Source: Escherichia phage MeretOppenheim_Bas102. From it: 39,651 bases of DNA. The position numbers and the translations under genes were made by a program. How positions within the stretch are numbered: position 1 is the stretch's first letter; each line of letters begins with the position of its first letter. The notes beneath the pieces were generated by a model that saw nothing but the letters and a program-made list of their open reading frames with translations, did no database searches and was not told the origin of the DNA. Shown here one piece after another: positions 6,573 through 12,257 of the stretch. The stretch lies in the sequence record PQ850620.1, one strand, 5' to 3'.

Positions 6573-9224
6573 ATGAACACGATTAACATCGCTAAGAACG
6601 ACTTCTCTGACATCGAACTAGCTGCTATTCCGTTCAATACTCTGGCTGACCATTACGGTGAGCGTTTAGCTCGCGAACAGTTGGCCCTTGAGCATGAGTC
6701 TTACGAAATGGGCGAAGCACGCTTCCGCAAGATGTTTGAGCGTCAGCTTAAAGCTGGTGAGGTTGCGGATAACGCTGCCGCCAAGCCTCTCATTACTACC
6801 CTACTCCCTAAAATGATTGCACGCATCAACGATTGGTTTGAGGAAGTGAAAGCTAAGCGCGGCAAACGCCCGACAGCATTCCAGTTCCTGCAAGAAATCA
6901 AGCCGGAAGCTGTAGCTTATATCACCATTAAGACCACTCTGGCTTGCCTCACTAGCGCAGACAATACAACCGTTCAGGCTGTAGCAAGCGCAATCGGTCG
7001 AGCCATTGAGGATGAGGCTCGCTTCGGTCGCATCCGTGACCTTGAGGCTAAGCACTTCAAGAAAAACGTTGAGGAGCAACTCAACAAGCGCGTAGGGCAC
7101 GTCTACAAGAAAGCATTCATGCAGGTTGTCGAAGCTGACATGCTCTCTAAGGGTCTTTTAGGCGGTGAAGCGTGGTCTTCGTGGCACAAGGAAGACTCTA
7201 TTCACGTAGGTGTGCGCTGCATTGAGATGATCATCGAGTCAACCGGAATGGTCAGCTTGAACCGCCAAAACGCTGGCGTAGTAGGGCAAGACTCTGAGAC
7301 TATCGAACTCACACCGGAATACGCTGAAGCTATCGCAACACGTGCGGGTGCACTGGCTGGTATCTCTCCGATGTTCCAACCTTGTGTAGTTCCTCCCAAG
7401 CCTTGGACTGGCATTACCGGTGGTGGCTATTGGGCTAATGGTCGCCGCCCTCTGGCACTGGTACGTACCCACAGCAAGAAAGCACTGATGCGCTACGAAG
7501 ATGTTTACATGCCTGAGGTGTACAAAGCGATTAACATTGCACAAAACACCGCATGGAAAATCAACAAGAAAGTCCTAGCGGTCGCCAACGTAATCACCAA
7601 GTGGAAGCACTGCCCTGTAGAGGACATCCCAGCGATTGAACGCGAAGAACTCCCGATGAAACCGGAAGACATCGACACGAATCCTGAGGCGCTCACCGCT
7701 TGGAAGCGTGATGCTGCCGCTGTGTACCGCAAGGACAAGGCTCGCAAGTCTCGTCGTATCAGCCTTGAGTTCATGCTTGAGCAAGCCAATAAGTTCGCTA
7801 ACCATAAGGCCATCTGGTTCCCTTACAACATGGACTGGCGCGGTCGTGTTTACGCTGTGTCAATGTTCAATCCGCAAGGTAACGACATGACCAAGGGACT
7901 GCTTACGCTGGCGAAAGGTAAACCAATCGGTAAGGAAGGTTATTACTGGCTGAAAATCCACGGCGCAAACTGTGCGGGTGTCGATAAGGTTCCGTTCCCT
8001 GAGCGCATCAAGTTCATTGAGGAAAACCACGAGAACATCATGGCTTGCGCTAAGTCTCCACTGGAGAACACTTGGTGGGCTGAGCAAGATTCTCCGTTCT
8101 GCTTCCTTGCGTTCTGCTTTGAGTACGCTGGGGTACAGCACCACGGCCTGAGTTATAGCTGCTCTCTTCCGCTGGCGTTCGATGGGTCTTGCTCTGGCAT
8201 TCAGCACTTCTCCGCGATGCTCCGTGATGAGGTAGGTGGTCGCGCTGTTAACTTGCTGCCCAGCGAAACCGTTCAGGACATCTACGGGATTGTCGCTAAG
8301 AAAGTCAACGAGATTTTGCAAGCAGACGTAATCAACGGGACCGACAACGAAGTAGTTACCGTTACCGATGAGAACACTGGTGAAATCTCTGAGAAAGTCA
8401 AGCTGGGCACCAAGGCGCTGGCTGGTCAGTGGTTGGCTTACGGTGTTACTCGTAGTGTGACTAAGCGTTCAGTCATGACGCTGGCTTATGGGTCCAAAGA
8501 GTTCGGATTCCGTCAACAAGTGCTGGAAGATACCATTCAGCCAGCCATTGATTCCGGTAAGGGTCTGATGTTCACTCAACCGAATCAGGCTGCTGGATAC
8601 ATGGCGAAACTGATTTGGGAATCTGTGAGCGTGACGGTGGTAGCTGCTGTGGAAGCTATGAACTGGCTTAAGTCTGCTGCTAAACTGCTGGCTGCTGAGG
8701 TCAAAGATAAGAAGACTGGAGAGATTCTTCGCAAGCGTTGCGCTGTACATTGGGTGACTCCTGATGGGTTCCCAGTGTGGCAAGAATACAAGAAGCCTAT
8801 TCAGACTCGCTTGAACCTGATGTTCCTCGGTCAGTTCCGTCTACAGCCGACCATTAACACCAACAAAGATAGCGAGATTGACGCTCACAAGCAGGAGTCT
8901 GGCATCGCTCCTAACTTTGTACACAGCCAAGACGGTAGTCACCTGCGTAAGACTGTAGTGTGGGCACATGAGAAGTATGGAATCGAGTCTTTTGCACTGA
9001 TTCACGACTCCTTCGGGACCATTCCGGCTGACGCTGCTAACCTGTTCAAAGCTGTTCGGGAAACTATGGTTGACACCTATGAGTCTTATGATGTACTGGC
9101 TGACTTCTATGACCAGTTTGCTGACCAGTTGCATGAGTCTCAATTGGACAAAATGCCAACGCTTCCGGCTAAAGGTAACTTGAATCTACGTGACATCTTA
9201 GAGTCAGACTTCGCGTTCGCGTAA
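6573..9224 (+). CDS. 1: single-subunit DNA-directed RNA polymerase (T7 RNAP, gp1)
   Basis: 883-aa ORF MNTINIAKNDFSDIELAAIPFNTLADHYGERLAREQLALEHESYEMGEARFRKMFERQ...; unmistakable T7 RNA polymerase. Confidence 0.98.
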   Translation: MNTINIAKNDFSDIELAAIPFNTLADHYGERLAREQLALEHESYEMGEARFRKMFERQLKAGEVADNAAAKPLITTLLPKMIARINDWFEEVKAKRGKRPTAFQFLQEIKPEAVAYITIKTTLACLTSADNTTVQAVASAIGRAIEDEARFGRIRDLEAKHFKKNVEEQLNKRVGHVYKKAFMQVVEADMLSKGLLGGEAWSSWHKEDSIHVGVRCIEMIIESTGMVSLNRQNAGVVGQDSETIELTPEYAEAIATRAGALAGISPMFQPCVVPPKPWTGITGGGYWANGRRPLALVRTHSKKALMRYEDVYMPEVYKAINIAQNTAWKINKKVLAVANVITKWKHCPVEDIPAIEREELPMKPEDIDTNPEALTAWKRDAAAVYRKDKARKSRRISLEFMLEQANKFANHKAIWFPYNMDWRGRVYAVSMFNPQGNDMTKGLLTLAKGKPIGKEGYYWLKIHGANCAGVDKVPFPERIKFIEENHENIMACAKSPLENTWWAEQDSPFCFLAFCFEYAGVQHHGLSYSCSLPLAFDGSCSGIQHFSAMLRDEVGGRAVNLLPSETVQDIYGIVAKKVNEILQADVINGTDNEVVTVTDENTGEISEKVKLGTKALAGQWLAYGVTRSVTKRSVMTLAYGSKEFGFRQQVLEDTIQPAIDSGKGLMFTQPNQAAGYMAKLIWESVSVTVVAAVEAMNWLKSAAKLLAAEVKDKKTGEILRKRCAVHWVTPDGFPVWQEYKKPIQTRLNLMFLGQFRLQPTINTNKDSEIDAHKQESGIAPNFVHSQDGSHLRKTVVWAHEKYGIESFALIHDSFGTIPADAANLFKAVRETMVDTYESYDVLADFYDQFADQLHESQLDKMPTLPAKGNLNLRDILESDFAFA

Positions 9225-9232
9225 CGCCAAAT

Positions 9233-9255
9233 TAATACGACTCACTATAGAGGGA
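9233..9255 (+). promoter_or_regulatory. T7 RNAP promoter phi1.1A
   Basis: TAATACGACTCACTATAGAGGGA immediately after gene 1 stop. Confidence 0.88.
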
Positions 9256-9533: not shown

Positions 9534-9791
9534 ATGGGTCGTTTATACAGTGGTAATCTGGCAGCTTTCAAGACAGCAACAAACAAGTTATTTCAGTTAG
9601 ACTTAGCGGTCATTTGTGATGAATGGTACGATACCTACACCAGAAAAGATTACATACGGTTACGCGTTGAGGACCGGACTGGGAACCTGATTGATACCAG
9701 TACATTTTGCCACTACGACGAAGACGTTCTGTACAATATGTGCACTGATTGGCTGAACCGTATGTATGACCAGTTGAAGGACTGGAAGTAA
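9534..9791 (+). CDS. 1.2: gp1.2 (inhibitor of host dGTP triphosphohydrolase in T7)
   Basis: 85-aa ORF MGRLYSGNLAAFKTATNKLFQLDLAVICDEWYDTYTRKDYIRLRVEDRTGNLIDTS... Confidence 0.88.
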   Translation: MGRLYSGNLAAFKTATNKLFQLDLAVICDEWYDTYTRKDYIRLRVEDRTGNLIDTSTFCHYDEDVLYNMCTDWLNRMYDQLKDWK

Positions 9792-9811
9792 TACGACTCA
9801 GTATAGGGACA
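9789..9811 (+). promoter_or_regulatory. T7 RNAP promoter phi1.3
   Basis: TAATACGACTCAGTATAGGGACA (C-to-G variant at -5 typical of phi1.3). Confidence 0.88.
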
Positions 9812-9869: not shown

Positions 9870-10892
9870 ATGATGAACATTAAGACTAGCCCATTTAAAG
9901 CCGTGTCTTTCGTAGAGTCCGCCATTAAGAAGGCTCTGGGTAACGCTGGGTATCTTATCGCTGACATCAAGTACGATGGTGTACGTGGGAACATCTGCGT
10001 AGACAATACCGCTAACAGTTGCTGGCTCTCTCGTGTATCTAAAACGATTCCGGCGCTGGAGCACTTAAACGGGTTTGATGTTCGCTGGAAGCGTCTGCTG
10101 AACGATGACCGTTGCTTCTACAAGGATGGCTTCATGCTCGATGGGGAACTCATGGTCAAAGACGTAGACTTCAACACAGGGTCCGGCCTACTGCGTACCA
10201 AATGGACTGACACTAAGAACCAAGAGTTCCACGAAGAGTTATTCGTTGAACCGGTACGTAAGAAAGATAAAGTTCCCTTTAAGCTGCACGCCGGACACCT
10301 TCACGTCAAACTGTACGCTATCCTCCCGCTGCACATCGTGGAGTCTGGAGAAGATTGCGATGTCATGACGTTACTCATGCAGGAACACGTTAAGAACATG
10401 CTGCCTCTGCTACAGGAATACTTCCCTGAAATCGAATGGCAAGCGGCTGAATCTTACGAGGTCTACGATATGGTGGAACTACAGCAACTGTATGAACAGA
10501 AGCGTGAAGAAGGCCATGAGGGTCTCATCGTGAAAGACCCGATGTGCATCTATAAGCGCGGTAAGAAGTCCGGCTGGTGGAAACTTAAGCCTCTTGAGGA
10601 AGCTGACGGCATCATTCAAGGTGTAAACTGGGGAACCGAAGGGCTTGCTAACGAAGGTAAAGTGATCGGCTTTAGTGTCTTGCTAGAAAGCGGGTGTGTA
10701 GTAGATGCTAATAACATCTCACGGGAACTGATGGATGAATTTACAGCTAACGTTAAAGAACATGGCGAGGACTACTACAATGGGTGGGCTTGTCAAATTG
10801 GATTTATGGAGGTAACACCTAATGGAAACCTTAGACATCCGTCCTTCACCTGCTTCCGAGGAACTGAGGACAATCCGAAAGAGAAAGTATAA
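9870..10892 (+). CDS. 1.3: ATP-dependent DNA ligase (gp1.3)
   Basis: 340-aa ORF MMNIKTSPFKAVSFVESAIKKALGNAGYLIADIKYDGVRGN... with adenylation motif KYDG; C-terminal region shorter than T7 ligase as I recall it. Confidence 0.93.
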   Translation: MMNIKTSPFKAVSFVESAIKKALGNAGYLIADIKYDGVRGNICVDNTANSCWLSRVSKTIPALEHLNGFDVRWKRLLNDDRCFYKDGFMLDGELMVKDVDFNTGSGLLRTKWTDTKNQEFHEELFVEPVRKKDKVPFKLHAGHLHVKLYAILPLHIVESGEDCDVMTLLMQEHVKNMLPLLQEYFPEIEWQAAESYEVYDMVELQQLYEQKREEGHEGLIVKDPMCIYKRGKKSGWWKLKPLEEADGIIQGVNWGTEGLANEGKVIGFSVLLESGCVVDANNISRELMDEFTANVKEHGEDYYNGWACQIGFMEVTPNGNLRHPSFTCFRGTEDNPKEKV

Positions 10893-11292
10893 GTATAACC
10901 CTGCGGCTCCTTCGGGAGTCGTTTCTGCCTCTGGTAAACCAATAGGTTACAAGCGGAAAGATGGGTATTGGCTACTTTCTTATGGAGGAAAGCATGTACT
11001 TGCACACAGGGTGGTCTGGATGCTTAACTTCGGTGTCATACCGGAGGGAATGGTGATAGACCACATTAACAGAAACCCTAGCGATAACCGTATAGAGAAT
11101 CTTCGAATAGTAACTCAATCAGCTAACCTAATGAACGTAGGCGTCCGGTCTCATTGTAGGAGTGGAGAGAAGTTTATCTCCCTTGATGTGAGAACCGGAC
11201 GTTTTTCCGTTCGTATCAGGAGAAAATCCTATGGCACATATGGTACTCTCGAAGAGGCTATAGCTGTGCGCGATGCTAATACGACTCACTAA
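10822..11292 (+). CDS. HNH homing endonuclease with C-terminal AP2-like DNA-binding domain, overlapping ligase 3' end
   Basis: 156-aa ORF with HNH motif IDHINRNPSDNRIENLRIVTQSANLMN and AP2-like tail (GRFSVRIRRKSYGTYGTLEEAIAVRDA); own RBS GGAGG at 10808-10812 inside ligase ORF; occupies the position of T7 gene 1.4; true start uncertain. Confidence 0.75.
   Translation: METLDIRPSPASEELRTIRKRKYKYNPAAPSGVVSASGKPIGYKRKDGYWLLSYGGKHVLAHRVVWMLNFGVIPEGMVIDHINRNPSDNRIENLRIVTQSANLMNVGVRSHCRSGEKFISLDVRTGRFSVRIRRKSYGTYGTLEEAIAVRDANTTH
10902..10930 (+). terminator. TE-like early terminator (for host RNAP)
   Basis: hairpin CGGCTCC-TTCG-GGAGTCG followed by TTTCTGCC immediately after the ligase stop; resembles the T7 TE element (GGCTCACCTTCGGGTGGGCCTTTCTGCG) as I recall it. 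Confidence 0.55.
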
Positions 11293-11299
11293 AGGAGGT
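11277..11299 (+). promoter_or_regulatory. T7 RNAP promoter phi1.5
   Basis: TAATACGACTCACTAAAGGAGGT; contains the stop codon of the upstream HNH ORF. Confidence 0.88.
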
Positions 11300-11306
11300 A
11301 CACATC

Positions 11307-11396
11307 ATGATGTACTTAATGCCATTACTCATTGTCGTCATAGGATGCCTTGCGCTCCACTGTAGCGATGACGATATGCCAGATGGTCACGCTTAA
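11307..11396 (+). CDS. 1.5: gp1.5
   Basis: 29-aa ORF MMYLMPLLIVVIGCLALHCSDDDMPDGHA immediately downstream of phi1.5 with RBS AAAGGAGG. Confidence 0.6.
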   Translation: MMYLMPLLIVVIGCLALHCSDDDMPDGHA

Positions 11397-11416
11397 TACG
11401 ACTCACTAAAGGAGAC
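11394..11416 (+). promoter_or_regulatory. T7 RNAP promoter phi1.6
   Basis: TAATACGACTCACTAAAGGAGAC; first three nt are the TAA stop of gene 1.5. Confidence 0.88.
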
Positions 11417-11421
11417 ACTAT

Positions 11422-11682
11422 ATGTTTCGACTTCATTACAACAAAAGCATTAAGAATTTCACGATTCGCCGTGCTGACCGTTCAATCGTATGTGCGAGCG
11501 AGCTCCGAGCTAAGTTACCTCTTATTGGTGACACAGTTCCTCTGGCACCGAGCGTACACATCATTATTACCCGTGGTGACTTTGAGAAAGCAATAGACAA
11601 GAAACGTCCGGTTCTTAGTGTGGCAGTGACCCGCTTCCCGTTCATCCGTCTGTTACTCAAACGAATCAAGGAGGTGTTCTGA
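11422..11682 (+). CDS. 1.6: gp1.6
   Basis: 86-aa [66 protein letters not shown]... downstream of phi1.6. Confidence 0.85.
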
Positions 11683-11910
11683 TGGGCAAAGACATGGTAA
11701 ACCAACCTGCGCATTATACTTCTGGCGGGATTGAGTGCCTTGACGCTATCAGGGCTTCGATGACAGAGGAGGCATTTAAGGGCTTCCTGAAAGGTAACGT
11801 ACTTAAGTATATGTGGCGCTACGAGAAGAAATTTAATCCAACTGAGGACTTAAAGAAAGCTCAGTGGTATTTGAAGCGTCTGGAGGAAGCAAATGAAAAG
11901 GATAAATCAT

Positions 11911-12257
<347 letters not shown>

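Follow-up and report, generated by a model that had tools for sequence, protein, structure and literature searches.

The closest described counterpart of the gene considered here is gene 1.45 of Yersinia phage phiYeO3-12 (AJ251805, CAB63597), annotated as 'homologous to HNH endonuclease'. In that record the gene overlaps the DNA ligase gene by 71 nt, the early terminator TE is annotated within it, and the phage promoter phi1.5 covers its stop codon. A further counterpart, bas64_0017 of Escherichia phage JeanTinguely, is annotated as a 'putative homing endonuclease'. The arrangement is therefore already known, and the layout described below is ordinary in that phiYeO3-12 was annotated with the same one. 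Searches of the literature on gp1.45 or gene 1.45 and on the phiYeO3-12 homing endonuclease found no functional study, nor were protein-level, transcript-level or biochemical data on the gene or its orthologues found there for any phage. In T7 the slot that takes the insertion, bounded by TE and phi1.5, is occupied by gene 1.4, an unrelated ORF of 51 aa which, unlike the endonuclease gene, has its own start 3' of TE; in T3, 13a and phiA1122 the junction is empty and TE adjoins the promoter.

The window, that is, the whole stretch of 39,651 nucleotides analysed here from Escherichia phage MeretOppenheim_Bas102 (PQ850620.1), carries a 156 aa ORF filling this slot. Taken as a whole, the data make it likely that this is a functional, free-standing homing endonuclease gene of the I-HmuI type with an AP2-like tail, orthologous to gene 1.45 of phiYeO3-12. 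It would borrow its signals from the phage backbone, start at position 10822, contain a hairpin that most likely terminates the host polymerase, and spread by homing.

The endonuclease and its locus

The ORF occupies positions 10822–11292 of the plus strand and begins with ATG; its assignment is based on the ORF list, Pfam, orthology and dN/dS. Upstream lies the DNA ligase gene (9870–10892, plus strand; 340 aa), the orthologue of T7 gene 1.3, with Pfam matches to DNA_ligase_A_M (1.2e-34) and DNA_ligase_C (2.2e-34). The last 71 nt of the ligase gene are common to both genes (10822–10892), encoding ligase codons 318–340 plus the stop in one frame and endonuclease codons 1–24 in the +1 frame. A Shine-Dalgarno sequence, GGAGG (10808–10812, plus strand), is placed 9 nt 5' of the ATG and coincides with the ligase codons Met-Glu-Val. 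At the other end, the promoter phi1.5 (TAATACGACTCACTAAAGGAGGT, 11277–11299, plus strand) was identified by pattern match; it matches the T7 class II promoter over 23 bp, including the phi1.5-specific CACTAAAGGAGGT, and is identical in alignment to phi1.5 of T7, 13a and phiA1122. The final five codons of the endonuclease (N-T-T-H-stop) fall within it, the TAA at 11290–11292 corresponding to promoter positions −4 to −2. The first backbone gene past the insertion is gene 1.5 (11307–11396, plus strand; 29 aa), recognized from its translation and by alignment with T7 and 13a.

An earlier note on this DNA had proposed the extent of the ORF, the ribosome-binding site, the 71-nt overlap in another frame, a TE-like hairpin in the N-terminal coding region, a stop codon within phi1.5 and the equivalence of the position with that of T7 gene 1.4, and on each of these points it proved correct. 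Judged from the two reading frames, the leader sequence of the endonuclease is dictated by the ligase. The gene would fill a gap of zero length between TE and phi1.5, with codons 1–24 supplied by the ligase 3' end read in the +1 frame, codons 28–37 by the TE hairpin and its tail, and the final codons and stop by the promoter. Such a compact selfish gene would bring in no expression signals: ligase codons provide the ribosome-binding site and the start, and the terminator and stop are likewise borrowed from or shared with elements of the host phage.

The predicted protein matches Pfam HNH_3 over residues 60–103 (10999–11130, plus strand) with E=7.6e-20 and 70.7 bits against a cutoff of 24.8, in agreement with the HNH motif noticed earlier. 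The catalytic residues D80, H81, N93 and N102 are invariant columns in a 36-sequence alignment of homologues, and the protein also matches PHROG 99, 'HNH endonuclease', at 1.4e-41. The top match by sequence and by fold is I-HmuI, the HNH homing endonuclease of Bacillus phage SPO1 (PDB code: 1U3E): the family profile retrieves it with E=1.4e-11, and an AF2 model of the protein (pLDDT 89) aligns with it in Foldseek with E=1.6e-4 and 37% identity over 90 columns. The two share the HNH catalytic core and the strands that precede it. I-HmuI is intron-encoded and has another type of C-terminal DNA-binding region, whereas the gene described here is free-standing and its tail appears to be AP2-like.

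The AP2-like nature of the tail, also suggested by the earlier note, stands only in part. Pfam AP2 was not matched by the whole protein, even at E<=10, nor by the C-terminal 55 aa searched alone, although Pfam AP2 is recorded on many homologues. The family profile, on the other hand, hits AP2 domains at positions 106–156, those of WRI1 (4.5e-4) and TEM1 (0.005). The model likewise places three strands (119–140) and a helix (143–154) at the C-terminus, and Foldseek superposes it on WRI1 with an rmsd of 1.9 Å over 52 columns, albeit with a weak E-value. A DNA-binding domain is accordingly predicted at residues 119–154 (11176–11283, plus strand), and from sequence and modelled fold together the protein is taken to be an HNH endonuclease of the I-HmuI type whose C-terminal domain is AP2-like.

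Gene 1.45 of phiYeO3-12 follows the ligase gene and is read in the +1 frame from a start 70 nt ahead of the ligase stop. Its product has 81% amino acid identity to the protein described here over residues 1–152; the C-terminal tail there derives from a T3-type promoter (..INPH*) and here from a T7-type promoter (..NTTH*). The JeanTinguely protein has the same annotated start and end and is 99.3% identical over residues 7–156, while its first six residues differ because its ligase has Asp-Gly-Ser rather than Asn-Gly-Asn. More widely, the ligase 3' end is the site of the gene in all 80 phage records with E<=1e-25, and 23 loci, representing at least seven genera, retain an intact frame and the catalytic residues; IMG/VR contributed only five further close loci. 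In W2B and SNUABM_11, annotators disagree on the endonuclease gene or skip it.

The hairpin within the reading frame

The putative TE-like intrinsic terminator (10903–10930, plus strand) is assigned from its fold, from covariation and from the TE annotation of phiYeO3-12, and lies within endonuclease codons 28–37. Its sequence, GCGGCUCC-UUCG-GGAGUCGU at 10903–10922, forms an 8-bp stem (10903–10910 paired with 10915–10922) around a UUCG loop (10911–10914), and is followed by UUCUGCCU to 10930. The stem has 6 bp in phiYeO3-12, and the loop is UUCU in JeanTinguely. As in a T7-type TE, this is a G+C-rich hairpin just past the ligase gene. TE of T7 (T7 position 7588) occupies the same place, with a UUCG loop closed by C-G, and also shares GGCUC in the 5' arm and the tail UUUCUGC. 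The stem sequence differs, however, and the window hairpin is the weaker of the two, having two G-U pairs and few U's in its tail; it is, moreover, inside an ORF, where it reads A-P-S-G-V, and its UUUCUGC tail is in another reading frame than the copy in 13a and T7. A 53-nt segment of the window folds at −14.9 kcal/mol (z = −2.05 versus shuffles), compared to −18.3 for a T7 TE segment of the same length.

Covariation supports the stem. Across the alignment 86.8% of cells are paired, versus 34–49% in slid controls, and none of 500 shuffles reaches the observed score. Changes are seen on both sides in four of the eight stem pairs, although the sequences share ancestry and a small number of events accounts for the double changes. 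Two compensatory double changes fall at third codon positions or give conservative replacements while pairing is kept, and dS across the hairpin codons is approximately one quarter of that in the remainder of the gene (0.35 versus 1.3). The same nucleotides thus appear to be constrained both as an RNA hairpin and as protein sequence.

It is possible, though unlikely, that the hairpin does not act as a terminator. It could be a near-palindrome that naturally encodes (A/S)-P-S-G-(V/L), or it could have another role in the RNA, such as stability, processing or ribosome pausing, with early transcription ending elsewhere. In keeping with this, P-S-G is invariant even in phages where its codons are unpaired (W2B, Rambo, P483, L097 and L098). 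The window tail, GUUUCUGCC, is U-poor, and a simple terminator scan of the window called none. The negative scan is discounted, as the genuine T7 TE goes uncalled too. The window tail, (G)UUUCUGCCU, begins with the same 7 nt as the T7 TE tail, and both fall below the scan rule of at least five T in eight bases. Rfam returned nothing relevant for 10600–11500, its sole match (SNORD35, E=0.59) being a chance one. In the Kayfunavirus copies the stem persists with no T tract behind it, and something besides termination must therefore also maintain the hairpin, possibly the conserved P-S-G peptide.

The compensatory double changes, the depressed dS and the distribution of the hairpin argue against this alternative. 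Across the phages compared, where the endonuclease stop lies in the promoter the in-ORF hairpin is kept with a T-rich tail, and where a separate TE follows the endonuclease gene either the T-rich tail or the entire hairpin has been lost. Because only phages with no terminator past the endonuclease gene have kept this tail, the hairpin is probably a working early terminator in this phage. In the NC-A clade the reading frame contains a different 9-bp stem followed by UUUUUGCGUU, which the terminator scan does call, and hairpins of this type nearly match the free-standing TE of P483.

If the hairpin does terminate transcription, early transcripts made by the host polymerase would hold only a 5' fragment of the endonuclease gene lacking a stop codon, and full-length mRNA would be made only by the phage polymerase or through read-through. 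The pattern-matched promoters phi1.3 (9789–9811, plus strand) and the phi1.1A/B-like promoters at 9233 and 9303 are the likely source of phage-polymerase transcripts that cross the hairpin and contain the full ORF; passage of the phage polymerase through the hairpin is expected from T7 biology.

A bolder reading, which we hold to be rather doubtful, is that the T7-family early terminator and the 5' coding region of the endonuclease are one evolving element. The hairpin would travel with the cassette, dual-coded as an RNA stem and as A/S-P-S-G-V/L, and would take over the role of TE when the backbone terminator is lost; the canonical TE of T7 and 13a would then be what is left of an excised endonuclease gene. 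TE of these endonuclease-less phages does read S-P-S-G in the +1 frame, which is also that of a 36-codon remnant ORF in 13a. Were this so, the endonuclease would set the boundary between early and middle transcription and would confine its own expression to transcripts of the phage polymerase. Comparison across genera further suggests that lineages differ in where the endonuclease body lies with respect to TE, in which case some phages may have the gene transcribed by the host polymerase and others by the phage polymerase only, a point of interest chiefly to specialists on T7 and to those engineering T7-like scaffolds.

Translation start and selection on the reading frame

The earlier note considered the true start uncertain, ATG 10822 being the only canonical start 5' of the hairpin and no ATG, GTG or TTG lying between the hairpin and the HNH core. 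Both observations are confirmed, the next in-frame starts being GTG 11011 and ATG 11020, with none earlier than residue 64. The question itself is largely answered by comparison, in favour of ATG 10822. A start codon is found 70 nt before the ligase stop in all 23 endonuclease-carrying loci (ATG, or GTG in SR04), with the frame open in every one, and GGAGG is present at the matching place in 22 of them, phage L1 being the exception. In the endonuclease frame a TAA lies two codons 5' of ATG 10822; a stop at this place is seen in six loci (the window, L009, Yep15, NC-A, L013 and PVN09), which excludes an upstream start in these and rules out upstream starts, as annotated for KP32, as a general solution.

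Purifying selection is evident over endonuclease codons 25–150 (dN/dS 0.05–0.24). It extends to codons 25–46, which span the hairpin (0–0.39) and are therefore translated, so that translation must begin upstream of the hairpin. Codons 1–24 give dN/dS >1 in the endonuclease frame, the ligase C-terminus being conserved there, and since this segment is unconstrained as endonuclease the assignment of the start rests on the conservation of one codon. That ATG is partly forced by the Asp/Asn-Gly codons of the ligase and is also present in four of six endonuclease-less relatives. In L098 the two genes do not overlap, and the same endonuclease begins there at a separate ATG 4 nt past the ligase stop. 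GenBank contains at least six competing start calls, of which these comparisons would best support the ATG at 70 nt from the ligase stop; records in which the endonuclease gene is truncated or missing can be flagged as well.

An internal start at GTG 11011 or ATG 11020, yielding an HNH core of about 90 aa behind an untranslated leader that includes the hairpin, is improbable. Short ORFs are annotated in this way in CQ615, Yep15, KKP 3708, Rambo and PE3-1, and gene callers rarely meet starts inside another gene. Neither internal codon is preceded by a Shine-Dalgarno sequence, however, and the family-invariant G42, H62 and R63 lie 5' of both, as do codons 25–63, which are under purifying selection. 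The alignment with I-HmuI, moreover, begins at about profile position 33, and the D-P-x-S-P-S-G segment recurs in paralogues at a different locus, where a start belonging to the paralogue precedes it.

Still less credible is a ligase–endonuclease fusion made by programmed +1 frameshifting in the 71-nt overlap. The +1 frame is open for at least 30 codons upstream in most relatives, and the overlap in the window contains CUU-AGA, with a rare Arg codon; this site is not conserved, most relatives having CUA/UUG-CGN, and the fusion is rejected on that ground together with the stop before the ATG in six loci, the conserved start codon and the non-overlapping arrangement of L098. The decaying, start-less pseudogene of an old insertion, which the earlier note had offered as an alternative, can scarcely be reconciled with dN/dS as low as that above while dS is saturated between genera, or with an intact frame and catalytic residues across the 23 loci, whatever the embedded start and the annotators' disagreement in W2B and SNUABM_11 may suggest.

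Probable mobility and comparison with other phage endonucleases

An alignment of the ligase 3' region reveals that a drop in identity coincides with the insertion. phiYeO3-12, which carries the gene, and T3, which does not, are ~95% identical over the ligase gene, 68% in the last ~400 nt and 94–100% again at phi1.5, and over that ligase 3' stretch phiYeO3-12 is 87–92% identical to the window. The same pattern is seen between the window, with the gene, and 13a, without it: a graded drop confined to the ligase 3' end and a sharp return at phi1.5. In both pairs, then, the gene is present in one and absent from the other of two near-identical genomes, and the flank is converted. A neighbour-joining tree was used to ask whether TE derives from the endonuclease 5' end or the reverse; in it, the terminase-adjacent paralogues fall within the clade of ligase-locus copies, next to P483/PVN09 (77% bootstrap), a placement compatible with either direction.

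Presence and absence of the gene, together with the graded foreign tract in the ligase 3' end, fits homing. By cutting a presumed target in relatives that have no endonuclease, the gene would spread into them and drag the adjoining ligase 3' end along. The earlier picture of a mobile gene wedged among regulatory signals agrees with the ligase overlap, the hairpin within the ORF, the stop in phi1.5 and the mosaic flank.

The seg and mob genes of T4-like phages, such as mobE, are intergenic selfish nucleases with expression tied to host-gene signals and with co-conversion of flanking markers, and by comparison the same appears to hold here. They belong, however, to different nuclease subfamilies and to a different phage family, and only in the T7-family case is a terminator embedded in coding sequence.

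Gene layout and translation start

The window derives from a T7-like phage (Teseptimavirus) with about 92% identity to JeanTinguely, C5 and N30, and its endonuclease ORF occupies 10822–11292 (+; 156 aa in the ORF list). The gene overlaps the last 71 nt of the DNA ligase gene (9870–10892, +) in the +1 frame and has a GGAGG (10808–10812, +) 9 nt 5' of ATG 10822. Its TAA stop (11290–11292) forms positions -4 to -2 of the 23-bp phage promoter phi1.5 (11277–11299, +), which has the same sequence as T7 phi1.5. An earlier note had placed the ORF, GGAGG, ligase overlap, in-ORF hairpin and promoter-embedded stop correctly throughout.

The gene for RNA polymerase (6573–9224) begins at 6573, versus approximately 3171 in T7, and two phage promoters (2837–2859 and 3803–3825) lie upstream of the early region, so that the window looks like an entire genome (39,651 bp) in a circularly permuted assembly, its numbering shifted by about 3.4 kb relative to the T7 map. 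Past gene 1.6, an 87-aa ORF (11682–11945) fills the slot occupied in T7 by gene 1.7, for nucleotide kinase; a gene differing from T7 gene 1.7 also stands there in the records of T3 and phiA1122. The ligase is 340 aa long, as in 13a and phiA1122, versus 359 aa in T7, and is mosaic relative to that of JeanTinguely (49–59% identity at the low point, around 10200–10300).

ATG 10822 is the sole canonical start 5' of the hairpin, and a TAA lies two codons upstream of it in frame. The next in-frame canonical starts are GTG 11011 and ATG 11020, in agreement with the earlier claim that none lies between hairpin and HNH core. A start codon 70 nt before the ligase stop is found in all 23 endonuclease-carrying loci examined (ATG, but GTG in SR04), and in six of these a stop two codons upstream excludes a longer N-terminus. 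The ATG and GGAGG are built of ligase codons (Met-Glu-Glu/Val ... Asp/Asn-Gly); the ATG is also present in four of six endonuclease-less relatives, and phage L1 lacks the GGAGG.

Nei-Gojobori dN/dS estimates for the window gene against eight relatives are 0.05–0.24 over the non-overlapping codons 25–150 and 0–0.39 over codons 25–46 (hairpin and linker); the latter values indicate that the hairpin region is translated and hence that the start lies upstream of it. Over the ligase overlap (codons 1–24) the ratio exceeds 1, as it should if the sequence there is set by the ligase frame. A pseudogene is rejected by the low ratio over codons 25–150 and by the open frame and intact catalytic residues in 23 of 23 loci.

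In a more distant, metagenomic relative (L098, Logan SRR21148735 contig, 478–916) the endonuclease gene directly follows the ligase gene without overlap. It has an ATG of its own 4 nt 3' of the ligase stop, its N-terminus is 15 aa shorter, and the 12 bases at this start (CCTAATGGAAAC) are identical to those at the window's in-ligase start. Paralogs in locus L097 and Kayfunavirus AN17P1 adjoin the terminase gene and start 8–15 codons 5' of the D-P-x-S-P-S-G segment that they share with the ligase-locus gene. Both arrangements support the start placement independently.

These paralogs (L097, 45–503, immediately 5' of the terminase large-subunit gene; AN17P1, L103, ~800–1200) show 43–47% identity and have their own start and Shine-Dalgarno sequence. 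They retain D-P-A-S-P-S-G-(V/L)-V-S, the codons for which form at most a weak stem in L097 (CUCC-N4-GGAG) and none in AN17P1. The paralog clusters with the P483/PVN09 ligase-locus copies in a neighbour-joining tree (77% bootstrap).

The in-ORF hairpin and downstream terminators

The predicted RNA hairpin GCGGCUCC-UUCG-GGAGUCGU (10903–10922, +) has a folding energy of -14.9 kcal/mol over a 53-nt segment, versus -18.3 for an equal length around the T7 early terminator, TE. Taken over 19 distinct sequences, pairing holds in 86.8% of the stem cells, versus 34–49% with slid partners; four of the eight stem pairs have changes on both sides, and the covariation score was matched by none of 500 shuffles. 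The NC-A/SNUABM_11/L1 clade has an alternative stem, GGCCAGUCC-UUCG-GGGCUGGUC, followed by UUUUUGCGUU, which differs from the window type by two fully compensated pairs, one joining two third-codon positions, and is called by a terminator scan. Synonymous divergence over the hairpin is about one quarter of that elsewhere in the gene.

The endonuclease stop lies within a phage promoter in the window, JeanTinguely, phiYeO3-12, KP32, NC-A, SNUABM_11 and L1; these seven have no second terminator 3' of the stop, and their in-ORF hairpin has a T-rich tail. A separate TE follows the gene in CLB_P1, PE3-1, SR04, W2B, Rambo, P483, PVN09 and Ebrios, where the in-ORF hairpin lacks a T tract or is absent. 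This complementary distribution, the most revealing of the hairpin results, argues that the window hairpin is the working early terminator. It falls short of proof. The window hairpin has few U's in its tail, and the P-S-G peptide, which is conserved, would by itself favour a small palindrome.

In Dickeya phage W2B (L091, ~1640–1680), the record of which leaves the gene unannotated, a T7-type TE hairpin, GGCTCACC-TTAAC-GGGTGGGCC-TTTGTCGTTTC, carries the endonuclease TAA in its loop, a second mode of nucleotide sharing between gene and terminator. The endonuclease gene of P483 is followed by a free-standing TE (L101, 1690–1730; GGTCAGTCCTTCGTGGGCTGGCCTTTTTGCGTTT) with almost the same sequence as the NC-A in-ORF hairpin (L092, 1281–1312; GGCCAGTCCTTCGGGGCTGGTCTTTTTGCGTTT), so one terminator sequence can apparently sit 5' or 3' of the endonuclease body.

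Protein family and mobility

The HNH motif proposed earlier is borne out by Pfam HNH_3 (residues 60–103, E=7.6e-20), and PHROG 99 'HNH endonuclease' matches residues 23–151 (1.4e-41). H62, R63, D80, H81, N89, N93 and N102 are invariant in a 36-sequence alignment, from which a confident AlphaFold model (pLDDT 89) was obtained; its closest solved structure is the HNH homing endonuclease I-HmuI, which the family profile also matches (1.4e-11). The proposed AP2-like tail found no match to Pfam AP2, but the last 50 profile positions match plant AP2 domains (WRI1, 4.5e-4; TEM1, 0.005), and on this profile and fold evidence the description seems fair.

TE abuts phi1.5 in T3, 13a and phiA1122, and in T7 the unrelated gene 1.4 lies between them, in line with the earlier reading of a mobile endonuclease in the gene 1.4 slot. 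The ligase genes of phiYeO3-12 and T3 are ~95% identical until a stepwise drop to 68% within the last ~400 nt, and identity returns to 94–100% exactly from phi1.5; over the dropped stretch phiYeO3-12 and the window are 87–92% identical. A like pattern extends over ~130 nt between 13a and the window. Homing with one-sided co-conversion would be expected to leave such a pattern.

Ligase 3' differences track the insertion only partly. The Val-Met codons of T7 ligase create a +1 stop never seen in endonuclease-carrying phages, and ligase ends in Val or Ile, not Met, wherever endonuclease residue 23 is Tyr/Phe; however, 13a and phiA1122 share a Thr-Cys variant without carrying the endonuclease.

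A +1 ORF that begins at the corresponding ATG is kept in endonuclease-less 13a (36 codons; L003, 1323–1433) and phiA1122 (29 codons; L007, 1318–1405). In 13a it crosses TE, reads ...KRKCNHTGSPSGGPFCV and ends in a TAA where phi1.5 begins; as it parallels the endonuclease N-terminus, it may be what is left of the gene. Window residues 6–37 are matched by PHROG 34032 ('endonuclease', 70 positions), which may have been built from such short ORFs. In Klebsiella phage K11 (L099, NC_011043, ~2060–2160) the annotated ligase ends ...HPTVRQMAWH, and the +1 frame holds the conserved ...FDKWRGTEADPTIKM with a stop immediately 5' of the phi1.6 promoter. Near the 3' end of ligase this record probably contains a frameshift, whether genuine or caused by faulty sequencing; no TE hairpin follows the K11 ligase.

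Proposed expression and known relatives

The endonuclease gene would contribute no signals of its own. Initiation would occur at 10822 within the ligase message, the first 24 residues would be a leader dictated by ligase, and the structured protein would start near the Y-N-P-x-x-P-S-G strands. Host polymerase probably stops at ~10925–10930, so that its transcripts could not code for the enzyme; phage polymerase, starting from the promoters at 9233, 9303 and 9789, would read through and produce messages that could. Cleavage would presumably fall, in endonuclease-less genomes, at the TE/phi1.5 junction or in the 3' end of ligase.

With tblastn, 80 phage records were recovered at E<=1e-25, each with the gene at the ligase 3' end; they come from Teseptimavirus, Teetrevirus, Przondovirus, Kayfunavirus, Berlinvirus, Elunavirus and Ningirsuvirus. 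Annotations conflict on the start, which is placed at the ATG 70 nt before the ligase stop, at an ATG further upstream or at any of four internal positions; in two genomes the gene is unannotated.

The arrangement was already documented with the phiYeO3-12 genome. Its GenBank record contains gene 1.45, described as 'homologous to HNH endonuclease', which, like the window gene, starts 71 nt within ligase gene 1.3; a 'putative early transcriptional terminator TE' is annotated within it, and phi1.5 covers its stop. The JeanTinguely 'putative homing endonuclease' is 99% identical to the window protein, with both ends alike. The additions made here are the evidence from related loci that favours ATG 10822, the finding that the in-ORF hairpin covaries, and the distribution of this hairpin, which is complementary to that of downstream terminators.
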